DNA of 64,000 bases from Candidatus Shapirobacteria bacterium (GTDB lineage Bacteria; Patescibacteriota; Microgenomatia; UBA12405): assembly GCA_016188545.1 (NCBI GenBank), contig JACPHO010000001.1:175336-239335 (forward strand). Reading direction: 5' to 3'. The notes under the pieces are model-generated. The model saw nothing but the letters and a program-made list of their open reading frames with translations, was not told the origin of the DNA and did no database searches. Each line of letters begins with the position of its first letter. The first letter of the stretch is position 1. The translations under genes and the position numbers were made by a program. Of this stretch, positions 4,290 through 41,117 are shown piece by piece.

Positions 4290-4308
4290 GTAGACTGTCA
4301 CGGGTTCA

Positions 4309-5019
4309 CTATCTCATCACATATCCCGCACAAACATCCAAACATATTCCCGTAATATGAGCTGACTCGTCGGTGGCTAAAAAATAAACTGCATTGGCAA
4401 TGTCTTCCGGTTCTCCCATTCTTTTCAAAAGTGTCGCCTCAACTAGCTGGGCTACCCGCTCAGGGTTGTAATTTTTCATCATATCAGTGTTTGTCGCTCC
4501 AGGAGCAACTGCGTTTACCCTAATCTTTGGTGCTAGCTGCCTAGCCATACTTTTTGTAAACCCAAGTAATGCGGCTTTGGTACCTGCATAAATTGGGTCA
4601 GAACTGCCAACATGGGACACGGTCGAAGAAATATTAATTATCGTCCCTTCAGCCATTTTGTCCAAAACATTCTTGGTGCACAGGTAAACACCAACTTCAT
4701 TCACCATAACTACCTTGTTAATTGTCTCAATATCGTAGTTATTCAGTCCTTTTACGTAGGAAAACATTCCTGCATTGTTAACCAAACAGTCTATTTGTCC
4801 AAAGTCTTTAAATGCTCGATCAAATGACTCAGAAATACTTTTTGAATCAGACATATCCATCTGGTAGTATTTGCAGTTTTCAATTTCCGGACCTGGTTTT
4901 GTTCTATAAAAACCAGCAACCGACCAACCATTACCCGAGAATTTTTTTGCAGTCGCTAGACCAATTCCTCTGGAAGCACCAGTAATGAATACTACTTTTT
5001 TCATACCTGATTTTATCAT
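4309..5019 (-). CDS. Short-chain dehydrogenase/reductase (FabG-like)
   Basis: TGASRGIG Rossmann motif, NNAG, YxxxK (YAGTKAAL). Confidence 0.75.
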   Translation of the reverse strand: MIKSGMKKVVFITGASRGIGLATAKKFSGNGWSVAGFYRTKPGPEIENCKYYQMDMSDSKSISESFDRAFKDFGQIDCLVNNAGMFSYVKGLNNYDIETINKVVMVNEVGVYLCTKNVLDKMAEGTIINISSTVSHVGSSDPIYAGTKAALLGFTKSMARQLAPKIRVNAVAPGATNTDMMKNYNPERVAQLVEATLLKRMGEPEDIANAVYFLATDESAHITGICLDVCAGYVMR

Positions 5020-5043
5020 TCAACCAATCAACTCAGCCAGTGG

Positions 5044-5090
5044 CTATTCAATCAAACAAAAAAAATCCCCCCGATTTCTCGAGGGGATTT
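5044..5090 (-). terminator. Rho-independent terminator for the RRM-protein gene (minus strand)
   Basis: AAATCCCC-12 nt loop-GGGGATTT hairpin followed on the minus strand by a T8 run. Confidence 0.6.
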
Positions 5091-5108
5091 AAATTTAACT
5101 AAATAAAT

Positions 5109-5468
5109 TTAGTAGTTGTCACCACCGCCGTAGCTTCCGCCACCGCGATTGTTTCCACCACCATATCCACCACTTCTTTGTGGACCACGTGAGTAATTAT
5201 CACGTCGTGGGGGTCGATCTTCCATTGGGCGAGCTTCGTTGACCCGAAGTGTTCGACCTTCGAATTCTTTACCATCCCACATGGAGATAGCAGCATTCAT
5301 TACTTCCTCAGATTCGACTTCTACAAATCCGAAACCCTTGGATTGACCAGAGAATTTATCTTTAATAACAACTACTGAAACGATTGTTCCAGCTTGCGCA
5401 AAAGCTTCGCGCAGACTATCTTCGGTGGTTTGATAAGACAAGCCGCCTACGTACAATTTTTTTACCAT
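5109..5468 (-). CDS. RRM-type RNA-binding protein with Gly-rich C-terminal tail
   Basis: RNP-1/RNP-2 (LYVGGL, KGFGFVE); GGYGGG tail. Confidence 0.7.
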   Translation of the reverse strand: MVKKLYVGGLSYQTTEDSLREAFAQAGTIVSVVVIKDKFSGQSKGFGFVEVESEEVMNAAISMWDGKEFEGRTLRVNEARPMEDRPPRRDNYSRGPQRSGGYGGGNNRGGGSYGGGDNY

Positions 5469-5561
5469 TCTGTAAAAAACTATTAATAATGTAGTGGCCT
5501 CTCCCTCAAACTTTACTTCAAAGAATCATCCCTACAAGTAAGCATTATACCTTAATTCCTG

Positions 5562-6125
5562 TTATTCCACTACTTCTTCTTCCAAGACCACTTCATCTCC
5601 CGAATCTACCGGTGCAGTTTTAGCCGCTGGCATCGGTGTTGGGTAAGTCAGCGTAAAGCTATCGGTTATCTGTGTACTACTTTTACTGTCTGTCGAATAC
5701 TCCAAAGTAAACAGTATATTGTCGTCAATAATACCAATGGTGGTCATTCCCCCCTTAACTACTTTTTTACCTGGTTTACCGCTTAATTCACTATCTATAA
5801 TTACTCCATCTTTGAACTTGGCTTCGCCTTTTACCCAGGCACTTACATCTTTATACTTGCTATCTATGGCCATTATTTTTAGTCCATCAGTGGTTGTCAA
5901 GTTGGCATATGAAGTATTGTCATTCGAATCAGTCGTCACTTTAATCGTCCCCGGATAACTAAAAACAAATCCCGCTTCATCTGTCCAAGTTAGGGTATTT
6001 ATTGTTGGAATTGGTGTTTGTTCTGGTACCATTGTCGGTGTTTGCTGTTTTGGTGGTGTTATTTTTGTGCACGCTCCCAACACCATACTCACAAAAACCA
6101 CCATCAGCAATTTGTGTTTTGTCAT
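5562..6125 (-). CDS. Putative lipoprotein of unknown function
   Basis: Signal peptide with lipobox-like LGAC; no recognised domain. Confidence 0.4.
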   Translation of the reverse strand: MTKHKLLMVVFVSMVLGACTKITPPKQQTPTMVPEQTPIPTINTLTWTDEAGFVFSYPGTIKVTTDSNDNTSYANLTTTDGLKIMAIDSKYKDVSAWVKGEAKFKDGVIIDSELSGKPGKKVVKGGMTTIGIIDDNILFTLEYSTDSKSSTQITDSFTLTYPTPMPAAKTAPVDSGDEVVLEEEVVE

Positions 6126-6148
6126 AAGCTAAGATAACATAAACCATC

Positions 6149-6577
6149 ATGAAAAACTCTTTGTTTTCAGTTTTTATTTTTTACTTTTTATTTTTTACTT
6201 TTGTTTCTTCTGCCAATGCAGCTAAGAAACGAGTCTATGGTTCCACCGCTGTAGTTTCCACCACCTCCAAATCAGTTGTTGTTTCACCCCGTCTTCGCCG
6301 CGATAAAGGTGCCCTCCTTCTAAATGTCAGCGGCCTGTCTACAGTCAAGTCTCTTACCTACGAACTAACTTATACTGGTAGTGGGCAGGATCAGGGTGTT
6401 TTTGGGTCAATTGAACCTTCAACTTCCGGCAATAGTACTTCAAGATCTCTTTACTTTGGTACCTGTTCGCATAACGTTTGCAACCCTCACTCGGGTGTCA
6501 AAAACGCCCGTCTCACTGTCACCATCAAAACTTCCGCCGGTAAAAACATCATCCGCCGTTATCGCATCAAAACTTAA
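6149..6577 (+). CDS. Secreted hypothetical protein
   Basis: N-terminal signal peptide (FLFFTFVSSANA). Confidence 0.4.
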   Translation: MKNSLFSVFIFYFLFFTFVSSANAAKKRVYGSTAVVSTTSKSVVVSPRLRRDKGALLLNVSGLSTVKSLTYELTYTGSGQDQGVFGSIEPSTSGNSTSRSLYFGTCSHNVCNPHSGVKNARLTVTIKTSAGKNIIRRYRIKT

Positions 6578-7100
6578 ATGGATCTAAAAAAAATATATTC
6601 GTGAAGTTCACAATTGGACGATAGAAGGTGTTAATTTCAAGGACATTACTACGATTCTCCAAGATCATACAGTGTTCAAATATACCGTTGATGAGATGGT
6701 AAAACCTTATCGCGATCAAAAGATCGACAAAATTATTGCCATCGATGCCCGCGGATTTCTTCTGGCCACCCCCATGGCATATCTAATGAATGCCAGTGTT
6801 AGTCTCGTTCGCAAAAAAGGTAAGCTACCCTATCTCTCTATCGAAGAGGAGTATCAAAAATAATATAGTCCTGATATTTTAACAATGCACCAAGACGCCA
6901 TCACCCCTGGCGAAAAAGTAGTTGTAGTTGATGACATTTTAGCCACCGGAGGTACTATGAAAGCTTCCATTAAGATGATTGAAAAACTTGGCGGCGAAGT
7001 TGTCGGCTGTAGTTTCATTATTGACCTACCCTTTTTGGGTGGCAGTCAATTACTCAAAAAATACCCCCTCCACTTTCTTGTCTCCTACGATTCGGAATAG
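6578..7100 (+). pseudogene. apt: Adenine phosphoribosyltransferase, disrupted: frameshift in an A8 run (6586-6593) and an in-frame TAA (6861-6863)
   Basis: Three frames align colinearly to APRT: MDLKKI..(shift)..IEGVNFKDITTILQDHTVFKYTVD..IDARGFLL.., then VVVVDDILATGGT PRPP motif; ORFs 6672-6863 and 6885-7100 are separated by a TAA. Confidence 0.55.
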
Positions 7101-7128
7101 TTACTCTTTTGTGATACAATCAACACAT
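7059..7128 (+). repeat. Copy 1 of a ~70-bp direct repeat: apt 3'-end (..KKYPLHFLVSYDSE*) + extended -10 (TGATACAAT) + start of small ORF
   Basis: ~85% identical to 7455-7522. Confidence 0.8.
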
Positions 7129-7452
7129 ATGACACTTTCATCCACTTTTTTTGATATGTTTCCCACACCAGAATCCGTAGCTAAACAAACGGACGAAAAT
7201 GCAGATGCACTCAGACAGCAAAGGCTCCAAATAACATCCCTCGCTAGTAGTCGTCAGGTTCGCAAGGCTCGGTCTGCAATTCAGCATATCGCTCAGGCAG
7301 AGCCAGTCAGAGACAACTTTTTCTTTCAACCAGTAGGTAGACTGAAGCCTATTGTCTCGATAGAAGACATTCCGTCAGCCGTCTTAGCCAAAGACACCCT
7401 TACCCGTGTAATAGCCAGTGACGTTTTGTTGACAAGGCGAAGAAAAGCTTAA
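7129..7452 (+). CDS. Small hypothetical protein (cassette copy 1), probably leaderless
   Basis: ATG 8 nt after TGATACAAT extended -10; its C-terminal half resembles the N-terminus of the next ORF (F.FQP..V...P..L..RV..S..L..RRK). Confidence 0.35.
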   Translation: MTLSSTFFDMFPTPESVAKQTDENADALRQQRLQITSLASSRQVRKARSAIQHIAQAEPVRDNFFFQPVGRLKPIVSIEDIPSAVLAKDTLTRVIASDVLLTRRRKA

Positions 7453-7454
7453 TC

Positions 7455-7522
7455 AATACCCCTCCACTTTCTTGTCTCCTACGATTCAGAATAGTCACTA
7501 TCTTGTGCTACAATCCACACAT
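7455..7522 (+). repeat. Copy 2 of the ~70-bp direct repeat (pseudo-apt 3' end + TGCTACAAT extended -10)
   Basis: Read directly; aataccc(c)tccactttcttgtctcctacgattc(g/a)gaatag... Confidence 0.8.
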
Positions 7523-7813
7523 ATGAACAAATTCACGTTCCAGCCCCAAACTATATTTGTTGACGAAAGCCTTGTCCGCACTCCAGAAACTGCTCTAAAG
7601 ATGGCTACTGCCATAAGAGTTCTTGAGTCCCGACGTAAGCTATTAGATCATGATATTTTTGTCACTGGTGACGGATCGCCAGCCGTCACACCTCTCGATA
7701 AAAGCATGGTAGGTATTCAGTTAAGGTGCGACCTTTTGTTTGCACTAGCACACCAGTCAACTGTCGAATCATCACTAATGTTAAGGGAGACCAAACGTCG
7801 TCTTGACAAATAG
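7523..7813 (+). CDS. Small hypothetical protein (cassette copy 2), probably leaderless
   Basis: ATG 8 nt after TGCTACAAT; diverged paralog of the preceding ORF. Confidence 0.35.
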   Translation: MNKFTFQPQTIFVDESLVRTPETALKMATAIRVLESRRKLLDHDIFVTGDGSPAVTPLDKSMVGIQLRCDLLFALAHQSTVESSLMLRETKRRLDK

Positions 7814-7841
7814 GGTTTTATCTAGATTCTCTTTTTAGTCT

Positions 7842-7885
7842 CTTGACTTCGGGTTTTATTCAAATCATGAAATTTGTGTTATAAT
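7842..7885 (+). promoter_or_regulatory. Conserved 20-mer CTTGACTTCGGGTTTTATTC (also at 8218-8237) plus extended -10 TGTTATAAT at 7877-7885
   Basis: Read directly; ATG at 7892 lies 6 nt after the -10, implying a leaderless transcript. Confidence 0.45.
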
Positions 7886-7891
7886 ATTCAC

Positions 7892-8113
7892 ATGAACGCC
7901 AAGACCATCAATAATCTTGATAGAGGTTTAGCTGCCAGAGATGCAGCCATCGACATCCTGGAAGCCGGAGTTAGTTCGTTATCAGGCGATATGGCTAGAT
8001 TCATCAGAGGTCTAAAAGTTAATACTAACCTTGATGAAAATTTAGCTGCCAGAGATGCAGCCATCGACAGCCTAAGAGCCAGGTGGGATAAATTGAAACC
8101 TAAGCTTCCCTAA
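7892..8113 (+). CDS. Small protein with internal duplication (NLDxxLAARDAAIDxL twice)
   Basis: 28-bp exact DNA repeat ttagctgccagagatgcagccatcgaca at ~7927 and ~8044. Confidence 0.35.
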   Translation: MNAKTINNLDRGLAARDAAIDILEAGVSSLSGDMARFIRGLKVNTNLDENLAARDAAIDSLRARWDKLKPKLP

Positions 8114-8289
8114 CCAGACCAACACGTCCTATATTCTTTATCAAAATCGAGTTTAATAAAGTAACCAGTTTGTTCTGTTCCAAATTTATAAATCCCGTTT
8201 CGCATATTTTTTGCTACCTTGACTTCGGGTTTTATTCGGGTTAAATTTATCTAGTTTGTTTTTACTTTTTATTTTTTACTTTTGAATTT

Positions 8290-8538
8290 ATGCAATTAGA
8301 TGTTCCCGTTTCTGTCATCTCTTCTTTTAACCACCATCTCAAAATAGTTTCTCCCCGCAAAGTTCTCTTTGGTGGTCGGGAATATTACGTCACCAAAATT
8401 GGTCTTCATCACACTCATCGTATTGGTCGCACTCTCTATCATGTCTTTTCGGTTGCCGCCAACCACACTTTCCTTAAGTTGAGTCTCAACACCGATAACC
8501 TCTTTTGGAGTTTGGAAGATATTTCTGATGAAGTTTAA
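8290..8538 (+). CDS. Small hypothetical protein immediately upstream of dinB
   Basis: ORF preceded by the second copy of the CTTGACTTCGGGTTTTATTC motif; no homology recognised. Confidence 0.25.
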   Translation: MQLDVPVSVISSFNHHLKIVSPRKVLFGGREYYVTKIGLHHTHRIGRTLYHVFSVAANHTFLKLSLNTDNLFWSLEDISDEV

Positions 8539-8557
8539 TCCGGCCGCCTCATCGGTC

Positions 8558-9751
8558 ATGCATCTCGATCTCAACTCTTGCTTTGCTTCCATCGAGCAGC
8601 AAGCCGATCCTCATCTTCGCGGCAAGCCGGTAGCTGTGGCTGCTTATGTTTCTCCGCGCGGTTGTATCCTAGCTGCTTCTGTCGAGGCCAAAAAAATGGG
8701 AATCAAAACTGGATTTAGAGTCAAAGACGGTCGGGCTCTTTGCCCCGACCTAATCGTCATTCCGCCCGACACCGACAAATATCGTTTTGTCCACCATCGC
8801 CTCCACGAGCTGCTATCCTTCTATACCCCATTGCTTGTTCCCAAATCAATTGACGAGTTTGTCCTCGACTTCAAAGGTAGTCAATGTTCTGATTTACATG
8901 CTCTTAGTCGTGTTATCAAGACCAAAATAAAACAGGAAATAGGGGAGTGGCTAACTGTCTCGATCGGACTCGGTCCATCACGTTTCTTAGCCAAAGTTGC
9001 CTCAAATCTAAAAAAGCCCGATGGTCTCGAAGAAATCAATATTAATAACTATGAAGCGATCTATCCCCGTCTGACTCTTCCTGATCTTCATGGTATTAAT
9101 TCCCGTTTTGCCTCCCGTCTCAATGCTGGTGAAATCTACACCGTTACCGACTTTTACAACGCCAATATCGCCCATCTTCGCTCTGTCTTCCGTTCCATCT
9201 CCAGCTACTATTGGTATTTGCGTCTTCGGGGTTACGAGATTGACGATGTTGATTTTGGGCGTAAAAGCTTTGGCAATATGTATTCTCTTCCCGCCTCTAT
9301 TTCTGCTCCCACCAAACTTGGTCCCATTCTCCACAAGCTGGTGGCCAAAACTACTTTTCGTCTCCGTAGCTATGGTTATCATGCCAGAGGCTTTTACCTG
9401 GGGTTGCTTTTTAGCGATCATAGTTTTTGGCATCATCACTATTCCCTCCCTAGATATCTCTTCCACGAAAATGACGTCTACAAAATTTTTTACCGACTTC
9501 TTCTTCGCGCGCCTCTGTGCAAAAAAGTAATTAATCTTGCAGTCTCGTGTTTTGACCTCAGATCAGACAATATGGTTCAGTTAGACCTATTTAATACTGT
9601 CAAAAAACAACTAAGTATATCAAGTGCTATGGACAATATTAACCGAAAGTACGGGAGTTTTATTATCTCATCTGCCGGTATGTCTGGCACTGACTCACTT
9701 GTTCCAGATCGAATTGGATTTGGTAATGTTGATCACTTGACAGACATTTAG
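8558..9751 (+). CDS. dinB: DNA polymerase IV (Y-family translesion polymerase)
   Basis: MHLDLNSCFASIE (DinB start HxDxDxFFA), little-finger domain; ORF track starts at 8528, the internal Met is more likely. Confidence 0.8.
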   Translation: MHLDLNSCFASIEQQADPHLRGKPVAVAAYVSPRGCILAASVEAKKMGIKTGFRVKDGRALCPDLIVIPPDTDKYRFVHHRLHELLSFYTPLLVPKSIDEFVLDFKGSQCSDLHALSRVIKTKIKQEIGEWLTVSIGLGPSRFLAKVASNLKKPDGLEEININNYEAIYPRLTLPDLHGINSRFASRLNAGEIYTVTDFYNANIAHLRSVFRSISSYYWYLRLRGYEIDDVDFGRKSFGNMYSLPASISAPTKLGPILHKLVAKTTFRLRSYGYHARGFYLGLLFSDHSFWHHHYSLPRYLFHENDVYKIFYRLLLRAPLCKKVINLAVSCFDLRSDNMVQLDLFNTVKKQLSISSAMDNINRKYGSFIISSAGMSGTDSLVPDRIGFGNVDHLTDI

Positions 9752-20013: not shown

Positions 20014-20820
20014 TTATAACCCATACTTTGATAGTGGAGCATTCCCTACCCTAATTCTCGGAAGAGTGTATCTTTGTTTTACACATAGAATATTTCCTTG
20101 TTTAGTTGTGAATGCCATACTGTAGCCAGACTTTGCCAATATTGCCTCGGCATCATTACTTGGTTTTCCGTATGGATACGCAAATACCTTGGCACCATTC
20201 AGCCCTTTTTCTGCAAGCTGAGTATCGGCCAGTCCAATTTCCTTTTCCAGGACTTCCTTTTTATCAAGAGCACTATGGTGAGACCAAGTATGATTACCAA
20301 AATATATTAGTCCAGAATTTTTCATATCATTAATTTCACTCCAAGTCAGATAATCCATAACATCAACCAGACCCGTGGGAGTAAATAAAGTTGCTGGAAA
20401 GTTGTATTTTTTCAAAATAGGATAAGCAGAGAGATAGTTGTCTTCATAAGCATCGTCTAAAGTGATCACCACAGCTTTTTTTGGTAGTGCTCTTTTCCCG
20501 TTAATAAAATCTGCCAATTCATCCATTCGCAGCACGTTGTATTGTTTATCCTTCAGGTATTGCAGATGTTTTTCAAACCATTCTGGCGACACATTCAACC
20601 CAGTCCTTCCTAGTTTTTTAGCCAGTTTCTCTTCTTGAATATGATGGTACATCAGTACATTTACGGTGGCACAAGGTCCGTACTTCTGATTAATTTCAGC
20701 GAAAGTAACTTGGTGGACGGTTGGAGTTAGTGCAATTGTTGGAGTCGGCATGACCGGAGGCAAAAACTCTGTCCGACCAACCCCTAAAAACCAAAAGAAC
20801 GATAATAAAATATTTTTCAC
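20014..20820 (-). CDS. Secreted polysaccharide deacetylase (CE4/NodB)
   Basis: ITLDDAYEDNY, His motifs (HTWSHH). Confidence 0.7.
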   Translation of the reverse strand: MKNILLSFFWFLGVGRTEFLPPVMPTPTIALTPTVHQVTFAEINQKYGPCATVNVLMYHHIQEEKLAKKLGRTGLNVSPEWFEKHLQYLKDKQYNVLRMDELADFINGKRALPKKAVVITLDDAYEDNYLSAYPILKKYNFPATLFTPTGLVDVMDYLTWSEINDMKNSGLIYFGNHTWSHHSALDKKEVLEKEIGLADTQLAEKGLNGAKVFAYPYGKPSNDAEAILAKSGYSMAFTTKQGNILCVKQRYTLPRIRVGNAPLSKYGL

Positions 20821-27893: not shown

Positions 27894-30548
27894 TCATTTT
27901 TTTAACTTTTGTAGCCAATAAACAGTTTGTTTTTGTAGCCAAAATCCAGATACTAAAAATAGTAGTAAGTAAGGAACAATGTTCTCCTCCGGTAGACAAA
28001 CGGCCTCTTTTGTACCCAATACTTCACCGCTAGACTTATCTACTGCCTGAATATCTGTTCTCTTCATGGTTGAAAACTGAACCCCAAACCCAGTTTGAAC
28101 TTCATTTGATGAGACCCGATTGCCGTAATCGTCATCTGCCTCCAGCCTCGATTTGGTATAAAACAATTTTCTAGCACCATTATTTCCATAAAGAGGCAAA
28201 TCGATAATTACCCCAAAGCTTAGTTTCCCCCCAGTACCTGCTTCCAAATCCCCCAAAAATATTTCATCTTTTTTCCATAGCTGGTTATTATCATCATAAA
28301 TCTCATGAACTAGTACATTATTTTTTGCAATTCCCTCACCTTTGTTATCGATGGTTATTTCAAAAGTAACGATATCACCAGGAAAAACGTATTTATTGAC
28401 GTTATTCGCAGCTGTAATTTCTAATTTTGGAAACCTTTTGGTGTCAGTTGATTTTGTACTAGTGTCAGAACTTTTTGTCTCCACTACTTCATTTTTTACA
28501 AATGTAATGGTTTTTATTGAGCTACTATTATTGTTAACATCCGATTCTAGGCTAGTAGTTTTGATGGTGACTACAGTTTCGACTTCTGATTTACTAATAT
28601 TCTCTGCAGCATAGGCAGTTTTTACTATCATTTTCCAAAAAGGCAGTTTGGCTGTTCTTATATCTGTCACTCTAACTCTCACCTCAAAATAATGCTGTAC
28701 CATCGCCCCCATCTTTTCAAATGTCCAAGTCAATTTATTCCCTATGCGAGTTAACGGCAACCCACTATCATCACTCAGATACTCAACCCCACTAGGCAGC
28801 TGGATTTCCATCACCGTTCTTCCCGCTTCCTCGTAACCCAAATTACTATATTTGACTAGATATTTTATTTCACTTCCGACCGGAACCTCTTTTGATTCGC
28901 TTGATATTTCCACAGCTACATCAGGATAGGCAAACACAGTATTTCCATTCCAATTACCGACAATATTAATTATTCCAAAAAACCAATTACTTCCAAAAAT
29001 GTTCATGTTCACCAAATTAGTTAAGTTAGCCACAGCGCTGGCTCGACCACTAATGATGTCCGAATATGTCGCTCCTTCGATCCTGTTTCCGCCGGTATTG
29101 GCCGTTACTTTTATATTATTATTTAGTGTCGCCAGATTATCGTTTTGCAAAAAATCTTGACCACTACTTACCTGACTTGTACTACTATATATGTAGGAGA
29201 AAAATTTTTGCCCATCTACCCACTCTTCACTTGATCCGGGAAATTGCCAATTATATATTTTCCCACCAGCCTGACCTAATACATTTACAGTCAGAAACAT
29301 TTGTCCACCGCCCACCAGGTCAAGATTTGCGGTCGTAAAGTTATTTGCATAAGAACTGGCATTTCCGGTCATTATCATTCCTCCGGCACCACCGCTAGTT
29401 TGGTTCGCCCCACTATTAGCTGTGCTATTTACATTTGAAGTTAGTGTTACTTGATTATTGTTTTGTGTCTGACCTGTGCAATTATCGCAGGAGGTGTTTT
29501 GGTTAGCCACCAAATCAGGGCGGGGGAGGACGAGATCCCCCAGACTATTTGCCGATAAGTTAATTACTCCGATAAAGAATTTTGACCCCACCAAATTAGC
29601 ATTTATTAAGTTGATAACATTAGCTAGTGCAGTAGCGTTTCCGGTAAGAATCAGGGCATTTTCACTGCTTCCACTTATCGAATTATCGCCGGTATTGGCC
29701 ACCACTGTCACTTGGTTATTAACCAAGGCCATATTTTTATTGCTTATCACCACTAGATTTGCATCCGCTCCAATCAATCCTTCCTGAATTTTAATTACCC
29801 CGCCACTCTCATTGGTCTGTATGTTTTTCCATACCTGATTTAGGTCGAGATTGCTTAAATCTCCACCAAAATTGTTATAGAAATATATCCCCAGTTGGCT
29901 TCCGGTCACATTTGTATTTATTAGGTTAACCACATTTGCAAAAGCCACCGCTTCTCCGGTGCTTATTTTTACTTCAGTATTATTTTCACCCCCACTACTG
30001 TTAGCGCCACTCACAGAATTTGCACTATTTGACGTCACTACTTCAGCGACGTTTTCCGTATTAGTTGTTGATTCCGGTGATGTCCCTGAAGGTAAGTTTT
30101 CATCAAGGGTAGTTAAACTGTTGTTAACTCGATTGGTGTTGTCTGTTATGGCCACAGCCGTCCCAGTTTCGATCGTCACAGCCGAACTATCGGCGATACT
30201 CAAGTTTTCCCCTGTACTCGCCGTCGAAGCGTTACTTGTCCCCAAGTCTGCCGTATTATTCCTATCGTTTGTCCCCTCGCAACCACCGGAAATAACGCAC
30301 CCACTAGCATTCCCAGGAGCAGTTGTCTCAGTACCGTTAACTATATTGGTACTTTCGGTAGTCGCCGTGGCATTACCAGTGCTTATCACCTCAGCGGGAG
30401 GCACGGTTTCACTTTGTTCATTCGTGGTGGTTCCTGTTGGTTCCAGTATTTCTTGCGCCAAAACTATCGAAGGGATCATTAGCTCTCTCCATAGAAGTAG
30501 CTGAACCAACAACACTGCAACAAATTTTCGAAACTTTTTTTTACTCAT
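27894..30548 (-). CDS. Large (884 aa) repeat-rich cell-surface protein with signal peptide and C-terminal TM + basic tail
   Basis: Signal peptide; repeated TG(D/N).A.A.AN..NL.N.N..GS motifs; DUF11/CARDB-like segment; C-terminal CLPEEN-[hydrophobic]-KQTVYWLQKLKK. Confidence 0.55.
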   Translation of the reverse strand: MSKKKFRKFVAVLLVQLLLWRELMIPSIVLAQEILEPTGTTTNEQSETVPPAEVISTGNATATTESTNIVNGTETTAPGNASGCVISGGCEGTNDRNNTADLGTSNASTASTGENLSIADSSAVTIETGTAVAITDNTNRVNNSLTTLDENLPSGTSPESTTNTENVAEVVTSNSANSVSGANSSGGENNTEVKISTGEAVAFANVVNLINTNVTGSQLGIYFYNNFGGDLSNLDLNQVWKNIQTNESGGVIKIQEGLIGADANLVVISNKNMALVNNQVTVVANTGDNSISGSSENALILTGNATALANVINLINANLVGSKFFIGVINLSANSLGDLVLPRPDLVANQNTSCDNCTGQTQNNNQVTLTSNVNSTANSGANQTSGGAGGMIMTGNASSYANNFTTANLDLVGGGQMFLTVNVLGQAGGKIYNWQFPGSSEEWVDGQKFFSYIYSSTSQVSSGQDFLQNDNLATLNNNIKVTANTGGNRIEGATYSDIISGRASAVANLTNLVNMNIFGSNWFFGIINIVGNWNGNTVFAYPDVAVEISSESKEVPVGSEIKYLVKYSNLGYEEAGRTVMEIQLPSGVEYLSDDSGLPLTRIGNKLTWTFEKMGAMVQHYFEVRVRVTDIRTAKLPFWKMIVKTAYAAENISKSEVETVVTIKTTSLESDVNNNSSSIKTITFVKNEVVETKSSDTSTKSTDTKRFPKLEITAANNVNKYVFPGDIVTFEITIDNKGEGIAKNNVLVHEIYDDNNQLWKKDEIFLGDLEAGTGGKLSFGVIIDLPLYGNNGARKLFYTKSRLEADDDYGNRVSSNEVQTGFGVQFSTMKRTDIQAVDKSSGEVLGTKEAVCLPEENIVPYLLLFLVSGFWLQKQTVYWLQKLKK

Positions 30549-34602: not shown

Positions 34603-36159
34603 ATGACAAAAACTCTAAAGTTATTCATCATTTCTTCTGTTTTATTATTCACTGCTTTTTATTCTCTTGGTGCGAAATCGGTCACTACAAATGTGTTAGC
34701 AAATGATCCTCCAGGACACTGTAGTAGTGGATGGATAGAAAAAATTGAAGAAGACGATGCCCCTTTTATTTCCAGCAACTCAAGTGGGTCAATATGCTCA
34801 GTGTGGATTAAGGCTGGTACTCCTTGTTATGAATTTTCTTCCAACACCAACAATGGTTGCTATGTAATTACCGGAGTAGGTGGAAGCGGAGTCCAAGTTA
34901 CTCGAACCGGTAGTGGTCCTGATTGTAAAGGAATTTCCCATGTCGAGTTTCACCGTTGCCCAGCGCCCACCAGTACGCCAATTCCAACCAATATTCCAAC
35001 TCCCACAGTAGTTCCACCCACACCCACCCAAGTCCGGCCTACTCCAACCTCCATTTTTTGTTCACCAACCACTACCAATACACCCTCGCCCACCAATACT
35101 CCAACAGATACTCCAACTCCTACTTCAACTCCTACTTCAACTCCAACTCCAACATTAGAACCCACACCTGTCTGTGACGATGAAGTTTGTCCCACTTCTA
35201 CCCCAACACCCACTGCCACACCTACCCAAATAATCTCCGGCACACCCCAACCAACCCCTAGCCCAATTCCCACTGCGACTCCCACAGGTACGTCAAACGT
35301 TGGCGGTGGTGACAATGGTGGTTCAAATCCTCCAGGTGCACCAGTCTGCACCGATCCCAAACCCGGCACTCCTTCAAATCTTCGGGTTACTCGCATTTCT
35401 TCCACCCAAGCCCGACTTGATTGGGATCATGCGTCTGATCCTCACACTTCTTACGTAGTCGCTTATGGCCCATCTTTAGGTAACTATCCCTGGGGTAGCC
35501 CAAATGTTGGCAATAATAATAGCTACACCGTCAATTCTCTGACTCCCGGCGCCCAGTACTGCTTCTATGTCCGAGCTCAGAATAACTGCATGCCTGGCGA
35601 CAAATCAAATGAAGTCTGTATAAATGTAGGATCAACTGTAAAGATCCTTGGGGTCACCGACAATTACAATCCCATAGTCGATGGTATCCGTGAAAGTTAT
35701 GGTGGTGACATTCTTGGTACTACTACCGAACTCATGACTACCGCCGAAGTTGTCTATGCTCAAAACAAACTACCCTCTGGCAATACTCTCGTCTCTGGAC
35801 AGTCAATCAGTATTCCCAAGATTGGAGTAAATCAGCCAATCTATGCTCCAGCTCGTATCGGGGACGACTACACTGTCGGTCACCAGGAAGTCCTCCACAC
35901 CACCATCGACGGTAGTTCTGTCTACTATGGTCACAATGGTTACGATGTTTTTGGTAGCCTCCACAGAACCAATATTGGCGATCAAGTGGTGACCAATAAT
36001 AATGGAGTCGATTCTGGCTACAATGTCACCGAAAAACTCTTTGTCCACAAAAGCCAGGTCGATAGTATTAAGACAACCGGTGACCAAATAGTTTTGGTCA
36101 CTTGTAGTTTCACCCAACCAGATTATCGTATCGTTGTTAAAGCTTCATTAACCAAATAA
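34603..36159 (+). CDS. Secreted FN3-domain protein with a C-terminal sortase-like catalytic domain
   Basis: Signal peptide; PT-rich linker; FN3 (PSNLRVTRISSTQARLDWD..YCFYVRAQN); sortase His (YYGHNGYDVFGSL), Cys (IVLVTCSF) and Arg (YRIVVKA). Confidence 0.5.
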   Translation: MTKTLKLFIISSVLLFTAFYSLGAKSVTTNVLANDPPGHCSSGWIEKIEEDDAPFISSNSSGSICSVWIKAGTPCYEFSSNTNNGCYVITGVGGSGVQVTRTGSGPDCKGISHVEFHRCPAPTSTPIPTNIPTPTVVPPTPTQVRPTPTSIFCSPTTTNTPSPTNTPTDTPTPTSTPTSTPTPTLEPTPVCDDEVCPTSTPTPTATPTQIISGTPQPTPSPIPTATPTGTSNVGGGDNGGSNPPGAPVCTDPKPGTPSNLRVTRISSTQARLDWDHASDPHTSYVVAYGPSLGNYPWGSPNVGNNNSYTVNSLTPGAQYCFYVRAQNNCMPGDKSNEVCINVGSTVKILGVTDNYNPIVDGIRESYGGDILGTTTELMTTAEVVYAQNKLPSGNTLVSGQSISIPKIGVNQPIYAPARIGDDYTVGHQEVLHTTIDGSSVYYGHNGYDVFGSLHRTNIGDQVVTNNNGVDSGYNVTEKLFVHKSQVDSIKTTGDQIVLVTCSFTQPDYRIVVKASLTK

Positions 36160-36161
36160 TT

Positions 36162-36680
36162 ATGAAAAGATATATTGCTCTAATAGTCGTCCTTGCTCTG
36201 GGAGTTGGCTACTTTGTCTCCCGCAAAACTTTTGCTCCCCAAACTGTAGTCAAGGAACCCATTAAAATTGAGGAGCTTTTAAAAATGCCCTCCGGTTGGT
36301 CTCAAGTCGACGACAAAGATGTTAACTTAAAATTCGAGAAAAAAGTCGACAAAGGTCTAAAACCCCAAATCGTTCTGAAAGTAACTCAGTCAGTTGAAGC
36401 TAGTGCTCCCGCCAAATACACCGATCGGTTACTCGCCGGTGCCAAAAGTGCCGTCCCTTCCCTTCGTCTAACCGGGGATATGAGAAATTCACTTGAAAAA
36501 TACTATTCTGCCTTTGTTACTGCGACTTATGTCAACAAAGGCCAGAAGATAAACCTTATCCAAAGGATTTATATTAAGGAAAACACCGTCAATACCTTAA
36601 CGGCTTCTTATACCGGAGACCTCGCAGTTGAAATAAACCAAATTCTCGACAATTTGGTTAAAGAAAAGATCTCACTTTAA
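36162..36680 (+). CDS. Membrane-anchored hypothetical protein
   Basis: N-terminal TM; ORF only. Confidence 0.4.
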   Translation: MKRYIALIVVLALGVGYFVSRKTFAPQTVVKEPIKIEELLKMPSGWSQVDDKDVNLKFEKKVDKGLKPQIVLKVTQSVEASAPAKYTDRLLAGAKSAVPSLRLTGDMRNSLEKYYSAFVTATYVNKGQKINLIQRIYIKENTVNTLTASYTGDLAVEINQILDNLVKEKISL

Positions 36681-36707: not shown

Positions 36708-37853
36708 TTAGTAACCGTAAATTAGATCAATCTTATTTTTATACAAATCCTGGAGAAATCCGAGTAGTACTGATTTATTTTTTGAATTCTGGTTGTTTAC
36801 GGTTCCAAAATAATCCCAATCGGCGCCTTTGTATTCCACTAATGTCGGACTCCCCAAAACTATTGAGAGTTTTGCCTCACCCACTTTGTAAGTTTTTATA
36901 ATGTCCAATGTCTCGTCTAATATTGTTGCCCTAGTATCTGCTGGCATCAACACCACTTTCTCCTTATCATCAGCATTGAGAGCAGAAAATGTATTAGTAC
37001 TGACAATAACTTTTTTCGGCTCCGCTAACACTATTAGTTCTTCGATCAAAAACTTGGGAAGATACTCTGCTGGACTAATTACCATTGCCCCGGTCGTTCC
37101 TACAGATGGTATCGAGGGGTAGCCTTCAATTCCGACTATATTAATTTTCCCTTTTGGAACATCAACCACATACGGAGTTAGAGTCCGATAGTCCCGATTA
37201 CTCCAGTCAACCGGATGCTCTTGGTATGACGAAGAGTTAAACAATACCCCCACATCACTTTCCGGGAATATTTTAACTATGTTCTCATGAATTACCAGAT
37301 AATATTTTGTGAAATCGGTTGGAGCAATATACTTTCTAGTCCAATTTGGCAAATTTGCTTGGGGTATAACTACCCATCCGTAAACATCATCCGATTTGAC
37401 CCCGCTTTGGTTAAGTGTCGTTAAGAAGTCCAAAATATATGTGTTGTAACCACCTTTAGCCAGATTGGTGAAAAAGCTATCATCCCAAGTCGAACTTGCT
37501 TCAAGATATATCAATGGAATCAGTCCCTTGTCTCTAATTTCCAATATGGATTTAGACACTGTCGACGCCTGAATCATCGCTAATTCTTTGGTTGTCGGAA
37601 TGTTTACTCTGATAATGACTTTGTTCGAAATGCTGCTTCCACACATCCCCTCAAGTTCACCTAACTTCCTGACACTCTCTTTTTCCGATTCTAAGAACAA
37701 ATAATTTCTTGAAGCATCCTCTCCACACTTACCGATGCTGTCCTCTGTTGTCAGTGAAGCATAATTATTTTCCGCCTCTGTCTCGACCGATTTCCACACC
37801 AAAACCCCCATTCCTACTATAAGCACAAAAGTTAAAATCAACATTTTTTTCAT
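36708..37853 (-). CDS. Secreted hypothetical protein, last gene of the GT2 operon
   Basis: Signal peptide; 4-nt overlap with the upstream gene. Confidence 0.4.
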   Translation of the reverse strand: MKKMLILTFVLIVGMGVLVWKSVETEAENNYASLTTEDSIGKCGEDASRNYLFLESEKESVRKLGELEGMCGSSISNKVIIRVNIPTTKELAMIQASTVSKSILEIRDKGLIPLIYLEASSTWDDSFFTNLAKGGYNTYILDFLTTLNQSGVKSDDVYGWVVIPQANLPNWTRKYIAPTDFTKYYLVIHENIVKIFPESDVGVLFNSSSYQEHPVDWSNRDYRTLTPYVVDVPKGKINIVGIEGYPSIPSVGTTGAMVISPAEYLPKFLIEELIVLAEPKKVIVSTNTFSALNADDKEKVVLMPADTRATILDETLDIIKTYKVGEAKLSIVLGSPTLVEYKGADWDYFGTVNNQNSKNKSVLLGFLQDLYKNKIDLIYGY

Positions 37854-39145
37854 GCTACATTACCTCCATCCAGCACCCCTTTTCTTGCCCAACTTTGCCA
37901 GGTAATTTCTTGGTTGAGATACATCATTTCGATGCTTCTCAAAAGTGCCAAGAACTCCACCACGGCCAATATATAAAACATAAACCAAGTAAAAGGAAAT
38001 AGAATTATATTCAACTTATTTGTTTGGTGGTCACCGAACACAAAAGCCGATAAGTAGGTTATAAAAATGAATAACGAGCTCAGTCCAACCGACAAATAGT
38101 CACCGGAAACGATAGTATAAGTCCAAATTGCTGTGAAGAAAAAAGGTTCACCCAACATCTGAATCTCACCCACCATGGCGTAAGGTAGAACCAGCCAAGA
38201 CATAAACTTACTGTGTTTTTTATCTCTTGAGAAAAATAGAGTTCGGTATTTCAGAAAAGTATCGAGTCGGCCTTTCTTCCATCTTAACCTTTGTTTATAT
38301 AATCCGACAAAATCACTGGCTCCTTCCGTATAAGTATAAACATCTTCGGCATATACTGACTTGAGACCGGCCTGTTTAACTCTCATGCTGTATTCAATAT
38401 CTTCAGTTTTGTTTTCGGTGTCAAAATACCCCAGTTTGTCAAATGTGGTTTTTTTTCTAAAAGCAGCACAAGCACCACCAAAAATATATTCGGCATCAAA
38501 TACCGAATTGACTCGCTTAAAATAAAATCCAAATATATATTCAAACTGTTGTATTAACCCCACTAGGTTTCGGACATTTCTCACCTTCACATTTCCCACC
38601 ACTGCTTGAACAGTTCCGTCGTGGAAGTAGGTCACTAGATTTTTTATTGTCAGGGGATGATGAGCCGAGTCTGCATCCATGGTCAGGATAATTTCGCCCT
38701 TAGCTTTTTTAATCCCATAGTTTAAGGCAGCTCCTTTACCCCCATTTTTCTTGAAAAAATATCTTACGATACTCTTGCCCGGACCCTTATCGGTTTTGTC
38801 CTTTAAGAATCCCTTCACCAGTTCGTCTGTTTTATCTGTCGAACCATCATTAATTACCACAACTTCAAAGTTCTTATAAGTATTTGTTAGTACTGAACGG
38901 ATAGTCGTTAATATACCCACTTCCTCATTCCAAGCGGGAATTATTATCGATACCAAAGGCTCATAATTCTCGGGTAGCTCTCCTTTTTTAATCGCTCGTT
39001 TCAGTCGTAACAGATTTAATTGTTTCTGAATATCATATAAAGGAGCAATCACCAGATATACAAAATATTTCACCAATACCAGCAAGGCCAATAAGGTGAT
39101 AATTGACCTCATGTTACTAAAGATAACCAGATAGTTTACGTTCAT
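37850..39145 (-). CDS. Processive family-2 glycosyltransferase (PgaC/IcaA/NodC/cellulose-synthase-like)
   Basis: D, DxD (TMDADS) and QRLRW motifs; N- and C-terminal TM helices. Confidence 0.75.
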   Translation of the reverse strand: MNVNYLVIFSNMRSIITLLALLVLVKYFVYLVIAPLYDIQKQLNLLRLKRAIKKGELPENYEPLVSIIIPAWNEEVGILTTIRSVLTNTYKNFEVVVINDGSTDKTDELVKGFLKDKTDKGPGKSIVRYFFKKNGGKGAALNYGIKKAKGEIILTMDADSAHHPLTIKNLVTYFHDGTVQAVVGNVKVRNVRNLVGLIQQFEYIFGFYFKRVNSVFDAEYIFGGACAAFRKKTTFDKLGYFDTENKTEDIEYSMRVKQAGLKSVYAEDVYTYTEGASDFVGLYKQRLRWKKGRLDTFLKYRTLFFSRDKKHSKFMSWLVLPYAMVGEIQMLGEPFFFTAIWTYTIVSGDYLSVGLSSLFIFITYLSAFVFGDHQTNKLNIILFPFTWFMFYILAVVEFLALLRSIEMMYLNQEITWQSWARKGVLDGGNVA

Positions 39146-39747
39146 ATGACTTCCTCAACACTTTCATAAACAGCCGTAATCACCATGCCTTTTCCAGCTG
39201 ATTTTTTCAGAGACTCAACTATAAAGACTTTGGTTTTAACATCAGGTGTTTGCATAGTATATGGAGCATCTTCCACCATTTTTTGTCTAACTCTAAAGGA
39301 GTACAAATACCCCTTATCAGTTTCGATAGAAAACCTATCTCCCTCATTCAAAGTATTTACGATACCAAATAAAGAAAAATTAGGACTGGCAAAAATCAGG
39401 GAATCTCCAAACATACCGGATTTACTCTCATCCAGTGTTATTAGATATGCCTTGGAACTGGACAGCTTCCATCGATTACCTACGCTAATAGGTTCGTCGA
39501 GATTCAAATTTATTCCCAGTTTTGGTATTCGTAGATTAGTTGGTCTGCCCAGTATTCCATAGCGATTGATCTTGGCAGTCGAGTAACCATCATTTAAATT
39601 AATCGGTGTCTCGACAGTTTGTACAGAGTCAAAGTATGGCAAATCTACAAAAAAAGCTTTTTCCAATACATTGGCATATAGAAAAAATGACAGTAGAAAA
39701 TTGAGAGTTATAAAAGACATAACAGAAATATTGGCAATGTGTTTCAT
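39142..39747 (-). CDS. Hypothetical membrane-anchored protein in the GT2 operon
   Basis: ORF; 4-nt overlaps on both sides. Confidence 0.35.
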   Translation of the reverse strand: MKHIANISVMSFITLNFLLSFFLYANVLEKAFFVDLPYFDSVQTVETPINLNDGYSTAKINRYGILGRPTNLRIPKLGINLNLDEPISVGNRWKLSSSKAYLITLDESKSGMFGDSLIFASPNFSLFGIVNTLNEGDRFSIETDKGYLYSFRVRQKMVEDAPYTMQTPDVKTKVFIVESLKKSAGKGMVITAVYESVEEVI

Positions 39748-39968
39748 ACTAGAAATTTACGGGTTATTTTTAAGCAAAAAGTTATTATTCCGGACATAAA
39801 ATTAGATAAAAAAATAGCCACCAAAAATCCAAGGAAAATGATTGTCAAAAAGTAATAGCCCTCGCTTTTTAAATTAGCGACTACATGGTTGCGGTTTATA
39901 TAAGTTAAGGACTCTGTAAATATTTGGCTTATTGCATTAATCATATTATTCAAACCAAGGGTTTCCAC
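39744..39968 (-). CDS. Small membrane protein
   Basis: Two predicted TM helices; ORF only. Confidence 0.25.
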   Translation of the reverse strand: METLGLNNMINAISQIFTESLTYINRNHVVANLKSEGYYFLTIIFLGFLVAIFLSNFMSGIITFCLKITRKFLV

Positions 39969-40995
39969 CCAAGTGCCAAATTGATATGTTTTTCACACCC
40001 AGCGACTTTATAAAGTTAATTTTTTTAGAAAGACCTTCCTCCTTCTGAGTAACATAAAATTTACCCTTGTCTTGCCATGAATATTCAAAAGATTTTTTAG
40101 ATATGCTAGCCTTTTCGTATCCGGGATATTTCATTGATTGTTCTTGAGTGTCAAGAATAATCTGGCCTTTATCGTTGAAGTGATAACCATATGCTGGAAC
40201 ACCAACGACCAACTTTTTTGGATCAACTTGGCTCATTATGTATTTAACATTTTTCTCAACCCAATCATTTGGGGCTACATACGAATTCTTTTCCCCGTCG
40301 TATTGATAGTCGTAAGCCATAACCAGTAAAAAGTTAACCGGTAGTTTGTCAAAGTCAGCGTAGTTCCAAGGATAGTTAAGTTGAGTTTCCGCTGTTATCG
40401 GTGGTCCATCCAGCATCAACAATTTCCCCTTATCCCTTACAGTTGTGCCCAAATCCGTCACAAACTTTTTATAGTTTGCATAATCCACTTTTGTCCAACT
40501 ACTAAAATCTTCAAAATCCACCTCTATCCCAGACAATCCTTGTGTTTCTATAAATTCGACCAAAGTATCGATCACCTTTTTAACCTTTTTCTCATCAGCG
40601 AAAAGTACTCTCATATCTATATGGTTAGCCGAAATAACGACGTATTGTTGTTTAGAGTACTTCTTTATTAAGTTTATGTTTTCCTTCGAATATCCATTAC
40701 ATCCATGCTCATTTTCTGTCAAAAGCGTAACTTCTCCTGTTTCATTAATATCAAAATATTCTGATTTCAACACATCGATCTCTCGTCCATCGGCAATTTC
40801 TTTCATGGCATTGCACGATGGTGAACCGGGATAAATCCAAGCTTGAATTGTTACCTCGTTTTCTTTAGCTTCGTCAACTTCGTTACCTTTATTATTTAGC
40901 GCTGAAGTATCCTCCACTTTTACCGGCACCAGAAGTTTTCCTGTTACGACCACCAACACCGCCAAAAATAGATATAGCACCCATCTTAATTTCAT
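39946..40995 (-). CDS. Secreted GH18-like (chitinase-fold) protein, first gene of the GT2 operon
   Basis: Signal peptide; LSGIEVDFEDF resembles the GH18 DGxDxDWE motif. Confidence 0.4.
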   Translation of the reverse strand: MKLRWVLYLFLAVLVVVTGKLLVPVKVEDTSALNNKGNEVDEAKENEVTIQAWIYPGSPSCNAMKEIADGREIDVLKSEYFDINETGEVTLLTENEHGCNGYSKENINLIKKYSKQQYVVISANHIDMRVLFADEKKVKKVIDTLVEFIETQGLSGIEVDFEDFSSWTKVDYANYKKFVTDLGTTVRDKGKLLMLDGPPITAETQLNYPWNYADFDKLPVNFLLVMAYDYQYDGEKNSYVAPNDWVEKNVKYIMSQVDPKKLVVGVPAYGYHFNDKGQIILDTQEQSMKYPGYEKASISKKSFEYSWQDKGKFYVTQKEEGLSKKINFIKSLGVKNISIWHLGGNPWFE

Positions 40996-41117
40996 TTTTC
41001 GTTAAAGCAGTTATATTTTGAAGATAGATCACAGAAATATTGTATTATTGTATGATAACTCATACTATAAAGCTAGGAGTTTATTTTGAATTGGCTATGT
41101 ACCTTGTGCGTATCAGA

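Follow-up and report, generated by a model that had tools for sequence, protein, structure and literature searches.

A conserved operon around a PgaC/IcaA-like glycosyltransferase in Candidatus Shapirobacteria, with a predicted sortase-fold protein and a putative barrel-type glycosidase as accessory components

The DNA analyzed here, referred to as the window, is a stretch of 64,000 nt from Candidatus Shapirobacteria, which belong to the candidate phyla radiation (CPR; Patescibacteria), and stems from assembly GCA_016188545.1, contig JACPHO010000001.1. Its minus strand carries five contiguous genes, which we designate A to E in their reading direction (Table 1). The central gene D codes for a membrane glycosyltransferase of family 2 (GT2) of the processive type, and the genes around it code for a protein of glycoside hydrolase family 18 (GH18), a micro-protein with a single transmembrane (TM) helix, a TM-anchored protein with a predicted sortase fold, and a protein with a predicted barrel structure. 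All five open reading frames (ORFs) had been proposed in an initial annotation of this DNA; they are indeed present and conserved, and E is identical to NCBI entry HYV64_01340. The operon as a whole is, with a probability of roughly 60%, best explained as a system by which a CPR bacterium makes an extracellular glycan in a synthase-dependent manner.

Table 1. Genes of the operon and the region upstream of it (positions within the window).
Feature	Position	Strand	Description
A	39946-40995	minus	349 aa, GH18-family glycosidase-like protein with N-terminal signal/anchor helix
B	39744-39944	minus	66 aa, single-TM micro-protein (74 aa if GTG 39968 is the start)
C	39142-39747	minus	201 aa, TM-anchored extracytoplasmic protein with predicted sortase fold, lacking the sortase catalytic residues
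D	37850-39145	minus	431 aa, putative processive membrane GT2 synthase, PgaC/IcaA-like
E	36708-37853	minus	381 aa, signal/anchor and predicted (beta/alpha)8-barrel, glycosidase-like; family without Pfam/NCBIfam model
Upstream region of A	40996-41117	minus	122 nt, the sole sizeable gap on this strand

The genes are tightly packed. The initial annotation had described all junctions as 4-nt overlaps of the ATGA type, which is correct for B/C (GTATGA), C/D (ATATGA), and D/E (GCATGA), whereas A and B are separated by a 1-nt spacer (TAA-T-ATG) that turns into a 23-nt overlap if B starts at GTG 39968. Shine-Dalgarno-like sequences (GAGGA/GGAGG) precede D and E and lie within the respective preceding genes. 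Overlaps of 4 nt were also found at 25 C/D and 30 D/E junctions of related loci, indicating tight junctions throughout the family, with the bias that the start codon nearest to the upstream stop was chosen for this count. All five genes are under purifying selection, with nonsynonymous divergences (dN) of 0.04-0.29 and synonymous divergences (dS) that are saturated, so that dN << dS holds only qualitatively. The gap upstream of A is probably the promoter region of the operon, albeit on weak evidence, namely one weak sigma-70-like match at 41071-41044, with a scan total that did not exceed that of shuffled sequence. Neither a riboswitch or other Rfam family upstream of A nor a cyclic di-GMP element was found, and no convincing promoter or terminator beyond chance level was detected at the operon. 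IMG/VR contained no relative of the operon that would point to a phage origin.

The synthase D was matched by the Pfam families Glycos_transf_2 (8e-37), Glyco_tranf_2_3, and Glyco_trans_2_3. Its best curated match was the model TIGR03937 PgaC_IcaA, which aligned over the full length (D 53-418 versus model positions 35-403 of 407) and scored 162.8 bits against an equivalog cutoff of 422.3. Lower scores were obtained with the models of the XrtG-associated GT2 (TIGR03111, 101 bits), NodC (70 bits), and CelA (58 bits), and a faint match with Pfam Chitin_synth_2. The initial annotation had pointed out a QRLRW motif and placed a processive PgaC/IcaA-like GT2 at the core of the operon. The motif is found at residues 285-289, and its QRxRW positions are invariant in 41 homologues, as are D100-G-S, D157-A-D159, T247-E-D249, and the GGAC sequence at 223-226, so that every motif of a processive synthase is in place. 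Hydropathy analysis indicated TM segments at residues 7-25, 351-369, and 378-396, with more hydrophobic stretches in the conserved C-terminal region 310-420. The GT domain is thus flanked by TM helices on both sides, as would be needed for the predicted translocation channel. Because all motifs are invariant in the homologues and the best curated model aligns over the full length, D is, judged by its sequence, a processive synthase-type GT2, which does not yet prove a synthase of poly-N-acetylglucosamine (PNAG). More than 1,200 close relatives of D exist, most of them labelled Patescibacteria.

D also gave matches to the polyprenol-phosphate GT2s ArnC and DPM synthase, and one could imagine that D attaches sugar to a lipid or a lipid carrier, in the manner of a GtrB/ArnC-type or a ceramide/diacylglycerol glycosyltransferase, with B, C, and E serving an unrelated envelope function. 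However, these matches were partial and spanned only the N-terminal Rossmann half (approximately residues 60-190), whereas D possesses the TED, QRLRW, and GGAC motifs as well as a conserved C-terminal TM bundle, and aligns end to end with PgaC_IcaA and across residues 59-304 with BcsA. We regard a lipid-directed function as extremely improbable.

The arrangement of the genes was examined in 80 genome loci that had been fetched via the GT2 alignment and whose flanks were searched with profiles; 69 of them had sufficient flanking sequence. C, D, and E were contiguous in 60 of these 69 loci, with C ending at the start and E beginning at the stop of the GT2 gene, and the complete set B-C-D-E was contiguous in 54. 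The accessory proteins, which the initial annotation had called non-canonical, are therefore conserved, and the gene arrangement is far beyond chance. C-D-E loci were found in Saccharibacteria/Saccharimonadales, Woesebacteria, Moranbacteria, WS6/Dojkabacteria, Gracilibacteria, and Shapirobacteria, as well as on one scaffold of Actinoplanes flavus. The order GH18-(B)-C-D-E was present in every contig with an E homologue that a word-index search had returned; in one of them, locus L003, the same gene order is embedded in completely different flanking genes. Among the genome loci, a GH18 gene was found in only a few. The rarity of C and E that the word-index search had implied (four proteins each) was refuted by the profile searches, which detected both in approximately 60 genomes.

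Some of these loci deserve a separate description. In the scaffold of Actinoplanes flavus NEAU-H7 (locus L059, NZ_JAGFNS010000013.1, 70% GC), positions 6176-9486 contain a complete B-C-D-E cassette with a GT2 that is 49% identical to D of the window; the cassette is preceded by genes whose amino-acid kinase/PUA and aldehyde dehydrogenase domains make them look like proB and proA. This suggests a horizontal transfer between CPR bacteria and Actinobacteria. In L003, the genes around the cassette are of the types HTH_17 (excisionase-like), Bro-N, RhuM, DUF3800, and NYN (143-322 and 4997-8864), a mobile-element-like environment that is consistent with horizontal cassette movement. Nine Saccharimonadales loci (L018, L021, L023, L027, L029, L031, L037, L055, and L061) carry a second, divergent GT2 paralogue just upstream of B-C-D-E, at about positions 4000-6000. 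In L018, L037, L055, and L061, it is preceded by an ORF of approximately 200 aa that is weakly C-like (E-values 4e-6 to 3e-3). No E accompanies the paralogues, which form a deep clade of their own in the GT2 tree. The metagenome-assembled genomes with loci L008, L013, L025, L030, and L069 bear the names Gammaproteobacteria, Bdellovibrionales, Candidatus Acidoferrum, or Pseudomonadales in their titles, with GC contents of 34-52% and a contig of approximately 760 kb in the case of L025; probably these taxon labels are wrong or the contigs are mis-binned.

The initial annotation had listed two small membrane proteins upstream of the synthase, and this description fits B but not C. B has a TM helix at residues 32-50 with a polar Asn inside the helix and a basic C-terminal tail. 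It is conserved in L002 and L003, and in 65 loci C is immediately preceded by a B-like ORF that shows the motif SP[FY]..L...F.G.V...N and then the basic tail. The polar intramembrane position is occupied by Asn in 56, His in eight, and Gln in one of these ORFs. A dN of 0.29 versus a dS of about 2.5 was calculated between the window and L002, and gene callers had missed B in two of three related contigs (L001 and L002). B did not reach the threshold of any Pfam or NCBIfam family, the best match being VCA0040-like with 18 bits versus a cutoff of 26. By analogy, a function similar to that of PgaD or IcaD is possible.

C consists of a TM anchor and an ectodomain of approximately 130 residues, for which a deep family profile matched sortases, whereas a profile of 4-5 sequences had matched nothing in the PDB. 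The window protein scored 16.9 bits with Pfam Sortase PF04203, below the gathering score of 26.6, and only nine of 55 C homologues matched this family at E<=0.01. At the aligned catalytic positions, the C family has no conserved Cys, His, or Arg, and in 37 of the 55 members, including the window protein, Cys is absent from the whole domain. As we read the alignment, C of the window carries Ala120 and Glu178 at catalytic positions. The sequence VITAV was considered as an equivalent of the TLxTC motif and rejected, as the family alignment places E178 at the position of the Cys. Judged by these data, C is a sortase homologue without catalytic residues.

It would nevertheless be conceivable that C is an active, atypical transpeptidase or transferase that links glycan or protein to the wall by means of non-canonical residues. 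As judged from the consensus, the GN motif of sortases and a His motif upstream of it have been kept in the family, and 13 Saccharimonadales proteins (for example L037:6351-6983) possess Cys residues at both the His-equivalent (LLYCR) and the Cys-equivalent (viDCND) position, which are alignment columns 239 and 306. This pair could reflect residual or novel activity, but it may simply form a disulfide in the former active site. As the catalytic residues are not conserved in the family and as neither A nor E has an LPXTG-like C-terminal sorting signal, we consider an enzymatically active C very unlikely and favor a non-catalytic role.

Alone or as a family, E has no credible sequence match in Pfam, NCBIfam, or the PDB: none of 52 members matched Pfam, one matched NCBIfam weakly (deoxyribonuclease IV, E-value 0.0011), and both a shallow (4-5 sequences) and a deeper profile found nothing credible in the PDB. 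An exhaustive HMMER search of 1.84 billion representative proteins yielded a family of 203 clusters at 50% identity. The structure model of E, which is of low confidence (predicted local distance difference test score, pLDDT, of 56), has the alternating strands and helices of a barrel, and its Foldseek neighbors are TIM-barrel glycosidases of families GH26, GH5, and GH53, comprising glucanases, xylanases, mannanases, and galactanases, with the exopolysaccharide (EPS) hydrolase PslG among the top matches. On the basis of this model, E would be a glycosidase-like (beta/alpha)8-barrel. Residues conserved in the family lie at the C-terminal ends of the strands, namely E118, P164-E165, N167, N206, Q243-G244, N285-T-G287, R308, positions 335/336, and D345-W-x-Y348. 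The conserved acids E118 and E165 follow model strands 2 and 3, respectively; strand 4 is followed by Asn, and strand 7 by the variable residues E/Q and D/N. In the window protein, E165 is replaced by Gln, and positions 335/336 are Ser-Pro. A dN of 0.16 between the window and L002, with saturated dS, indicates purifying selection on E. E could have been a diverged GH18 paralogue of A, but an hhalign probability of 5.7% led us to reject this idea. One 3,181-aa protein (P0257) matched a 32-residue segment of the E profile (positions 112-143) with 24 separate stretches; it is a repeat protein and possibly a compositional artefact.

The GH18 assignment of A in the initial annotation was supported by a score of 73 bits with PF00704 (gathering cutoff 29.6). 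The solved sequences closest to A are the "probable chitinase" 5jh8 (4e-17), YdhD (3cz8, 1e-14), and SleL/YaaH. A has one hydrophobic segment (residues 1-19) and the active-site motif S-G-I-E158-V-D160-F-E162, in which the first Asp of the canonical DxxDxDxE is missing and the second is replaced by Glu. Solved relatives are similar at this site, with SGINVDFE in 5jh8 and GGVTIDFE in YdhD. The pattern G156-x-E158-x-D160-x-E162, the MxYD motif, and W340 are conserved without exception in 11 homologues. The question of whether the catalytic Glu had been retained, raised in the initial annotation, can therefore be answered positively at the sequence level: D160 and the predicted acid/base E162 are both kept.

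A search with the GH18 alignment in metagenome contigs revealed a second architecture. More than 20 loci consist of a B-like ORF, a D-type GT2 of 450-470 aa, and a GH18 gene, and have neither C nor E; the same order is found in locus L085. The GH18 subtype of A adjoins a D-type GT2 in most metagenome loci with enough flank. Since the GT2 gene of the B-D-GH18 loci likewise has a B-like ORF before it, B is the one accessory gene that the two architectures share. According to a neighbor-joining GT2 tree, loci of the B-D-GH18 type form the sister clade of the C-D-E loci, and the clade of the window (the window, L002, L003, L006, L007, L008, and L109) is the earliest branch on the C-D-E side. Every member of this window clade also has a GH18 gene. 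What had been described as a single five-gene operon combines, as a hybrid, two architectures that both occur widely (B-C-D-E and B-D-GH18).

The conserved residues of E differ between these contexts. E165 is present in all 44 loci without an adjacent GH18. Of the seven members of the window clade, six have another residue at this position (Q, Q, R, R, L, and N); at least one of E118 and E165 is missing from each of the seven, and none has kept N285. In a second GH18-bearing pair or trio (L013, L016, and L097), one member has lost conserved residues of E. The sister relationship of the GT2 clades, the presence of GH18 in the position of E elsewhere (L085 and the more than 20 metagenome loci), and the loss of E residues next to a GH18 lead us to read E and GH18 as alternative providers of one extracytoplasmic function, with the putative pocket of E being unconstrained where a GH18 is present.

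As to the product, for which the initial annotation had suggested PNAG or a chitin-like polymer, it is probably based on N-acetylglucosamine (GlcNAc), which is favored by the PgaC/IcaA affinity of D, by the dedicated GH18 with its intact motif, and by the presence of family 4 carbohydrate esterase (CE4) genes directly upstream of B-C-D-E in three loci. GH18 enzymes employ substrate-assisted catalysis, which needs a 2-acetamido sugar. The CE4 genes code for large secreted polysaccharide deacetylases (L013:501-2504, L016:4079-6088, and L046:4142-5995) that all contain CBM_4_9 and in two cases Big_7. The window has a CE4 gene as well, which is built differently from these three and which the initial annotation had noted as unlinked. 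The gene is real (20014-20820, minus strand, PF01522, 1.3e-22), but it lies 16 kb away among unrelated genes, we saw no sign of a linkage to the operon in this genome, and the protein could equally be a peptidoglycan deacetylase; we therefore do not count it as a member of the system. It adjoins a gene for an MgsA-type AAA+ ATPase, and a gene with an OmpR-type C-terminal domain follows about 1 kb further on.

The same machinery could also produce a polymer other than a GlcNAc polymer, such as a beta-glucan, a chain resembling cellulose, or a mixed polymer, in which case the GH18 would have another target. D falls far short of the PgaC cutoff and also matches the CelA and XrtG-associated models, the structural neighbors of E are the glucanases, xylanases, mannanases, and galactanases listed above, a GH10 gene takes the place of the CE4 directly upstream of the operon in L044, and most B-C-D-E loci have neither GH18 nor CE4. 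On the other hand, PgaC_IcaA is by far the best curated match of D and covers its full length, a catalytically intact GH18, with its requirement for an N-acetyl group, directly follows the GT2 in more than 20 loci, and CE4 genes flank the operon in three. In sum, a non-GlcNAc product appears unlikely, and we continue to favor GlcNAc.

A further possibility is that A, and perhaps E, are cell-wall hydrolases that are merely co-transcribed with the synthase and act on the cell's own peptidoglycan, to permit extrusion, or on the wall of a host. YdhD and SleL/YaaH act on spore cortex peptidoglycan. As these nearest solved relatives of A are named cortex-lytic or sporulation enzymes, YdhD being a sporulation-specific glycosylase, the cell wall may be the target of A. 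CPR bacteria in culture live as epibionts of host bacteria (PMC10633639), and a true sortase-FN3 surface protein is encoded next to the operon, both of which would suit such a wall-directed role. However, the GH18 subtype of A directly follows a D-type GT2 in most readable loci and is the sole extracytoplasmic partner there, and a single position in the operon is occupied by E in some loci and by GH18 in others, which fits a tie to the product of the synthase. We therefore regard a mere wall hydrolase function as distinctly unlikely and prefer a function of A and E in the processing of the glycan.

In a synthase-dependent glycan system, the components could cooperate as follows. D would polymerize a nucleotide sugar, most likely UDP-GlcNAc, at the cytoplasmic face and thread the chain through its own membrane channel, giving rise to a PNAG- or chitin-like polymer. 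B would be the obligatory or universal membrane partner of D, with a role like that of IcaD or PgaD despite the lack of detectable homology. C would serve as an extracytoplasmic, non-catalytic scaffold or chain-handling subunit that may guide or hold the nascent chain or organize a complex of the components. Outside the membrane, the polymer would be trimmed or released by E in most relatives and by GH18 in the sister clade. In the window, A would be the active glycosidase, and E, having lost conserved residues of the barrel face, would probably be a binding or structural remnant.

A more far-reaching version of this reading is that B-C-D-E represents an unrecognized, CPR-wide class of glycan secretion systems, in which a sortase-derived pseudoenzyme and a TIM-barrel family stand in for PgaB/PgaD, IcaB/IcaD, or BcsB/BcsZ. 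The glycosidase module would be interchangeable with GH18, the product would be a surface glycan of CPR bacteria (epibionts, as far as they have been cultivated), the cassette would have been transferred between CPR bacteria and Actinoplanes flavus, and the window would show an intermediate state with GH18 and a degenerating E. Taken jointly, these propositions are tentative, and we would not call their combination likely.

Several points weigh against the proposed glycan system or parts of it. With its score, D is not a PgaC/IcaA equivalog, which matters for the sugar and the linkage, and B resembles neither PgaD nor IcaD in Pfam and NCBIfam. The structure model of C is of low confidence (pLDDT 49), so that only fold-level statements apply, and the low pLDDT of the E model sets the same limit. 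In E, the "catalytic" residues were assigned from conservation alone, and its conserved acids do not match the Glu pair of clan GH-A, which follows beta4 (in NEP) and beta7. The solved relatives of A make a cell-wall target conceivable, and the linkage to CE4 is limited to three related loci. The correlation between GH18 presence and degeneration of E reflects about two to three evolutionary events rather than ten independent ones, the trees are neighbor-joining trees without support values, and the retrieval of loci by short peptide patterns biases the taxon sampling.

A comparison with known systems helps to place the operon. The initial annotation had proposed a comparison of the accessory proteins with PgaB, PgaD, IcaD, and BcsB, and this did not reveal a relationship: no match to these families was found in Pfam or NCBIfam, and the structural matches of E were generic TIM-barrel glycosidases. 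As in PgaABCD of Escherichia coli and IcaADBC of Staphylococcus, there is a processive GT2 of approximately 410-440 aa that has TM helices at its two termini and contains the motifs D, DxD, TED, and QxxRW, and the operon encodes a small membrane protein and an extracytoplasmic protein for polymer processing. Unlike in these systems, Pfam detected no CE4 domain (PgaB-N/IcaB) in any of the five proteins, a PgaA porin and IcaC are missing, and B has a single TM helix in this clade and no match to the PgaD or IcaD families. To our knowledge, Pga/Ica systems contain nothing that corresponds to the sortase-fold subunit or to the E family.

The cellulose system BcsA-BcsB-BcsZ shares with the operon the GT2 synthase-translocon, an extracytoplasmic chain-handling partner with a TM anchor, and a glycosidase encoded in the operon. 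However, D has no PilZ domain and only weak CelA similarity, C has a predicted sortase fold and no BcsB match, and the glycosidase is a predicted TIM barrel (E or GH18), whereas BcsZ is an alpha/alpha barrel of family GH8. With regard to chitin-type systems, the QxxRW-type GT2 with its match to the NodC model and the GH18 with an intact D-x-E beside it resemble NodC or chitin synthases in combination with GH18 chitinases. The products of NodC are short oligomers, and its partner proteins NodA and NodB are both absent here. A belongs to the 5jh8/YdhD/SleL branch that does not have the first two Asp residues of DxxDxDxE. We know of no conserved bacterial operon that combines a chitin synthase, a GH18, and a micro-protein.

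C shares with class A and E sortases the predicted eight-stranded beta-barrel and the motifs L.IP.lg (N-terminal strand), GN, and GD.i...y.Y.V, but it differs from them in the absent catalytic His, Cys, and Arg, in that no LPXTG substrate is apparent, and in that its partner is a glycan synthase and not a surface protein. E resembles PslG, BcsZ, PgaB-C, PelA, and Sph3/Ega3 as a predicted extracytoplasmic barrel encoded directly after the synthase, whereas it has no sequence relation to Pfam, NCBIfam, or PDB families and has lost several conserved acids in the window copy. The XrtG-associated GT2, the second-best curated model for D, likewise is an EPS-type GT2 tied to an enzyme of the protein-sorting type, but its cutoff of 364 was not reached by D, and a partner of the PEP-CTERM type was not seen. 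Exosortases, which are polytopic proteases of the membrane, are unrelated to the sortase fold of C. The operon thus fits the logic of synthase-dependent exopolysaccharide systems (Pga/Ica, Bcs, and Psl), but membership fails in each: D stays below the PgaC cutoff, the operon has no CE4, its proteins did not match PgaA, PgaD, IcaD, IcaC, or BcsB, C lacks the catalytic residues of sortases, and E falls into no curated family.

Our literature search on PgaC/PNAG in Patescibacteria/Saccharibacteria, on pseudo-sortases, and on CPR chitin synthases with GH18 found no description of such a system. The EPS genes SEML1_0081-0083 of Southlakia, which are important for growth, were considered and rejected as the same system, as they are of the Wzy/GT2/Wzx type, and a PgaC-like operon of this kind was not evident in the Southlakia genome tables.

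Some other genes of this region are notable as well. On the plus strand, convergent with the operon, positions 34603-36159 encode a secreted protein of 518 aa whose N-terminus is rich in Cys and which further comprises a long linker rich in Pro and Thr, an FN3 domain, and a C-terminal sortase domain. This is a true sortase domain (Pfam 1.6e-15) in which the sequence LVTCSF is present, and its fusion to FN3 is unusual. Beside it, a DcrB-like protein is encoded at 36162-36680 (plus strand). The pair adjoins the cassette in L002 too, but not in the other cassette contigs. Further away, 27894-30548 (minus strand) encodes a protein of 884 aa that contains a DUF11/CLIPPER repeat and is probably a large protein of the cell surface; its gene shares the region with those for the sortase and the glycan system.

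CPR bacteria account for a large share of bacterial diversity, of which most has not been cultured. Those in culture are attached to host cells, and the construction of the CPR cell surface is poorly understood. The present analysis turns an operon rich in hypothetical genes into a defined four-component module that recurs in dozens of CPR species representatives, with two parts for which no Pfam or NCBIfam model exists and one that is usually not called as a gene. C would be a rare case in which a sortase fold has been recruited to glycan synthesis without its active site, and the exchange of E and GH18 would constitute a natural experiment in module replacement, with an apparent intermediate state in the window. 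Actinoplanes flavus NEAU-H7 carries the cassette and offers a culturable entry point. If the product is a GlcNAc polymer, the module would represent a third bacterial architecture for PNAG- or chitin-like material.

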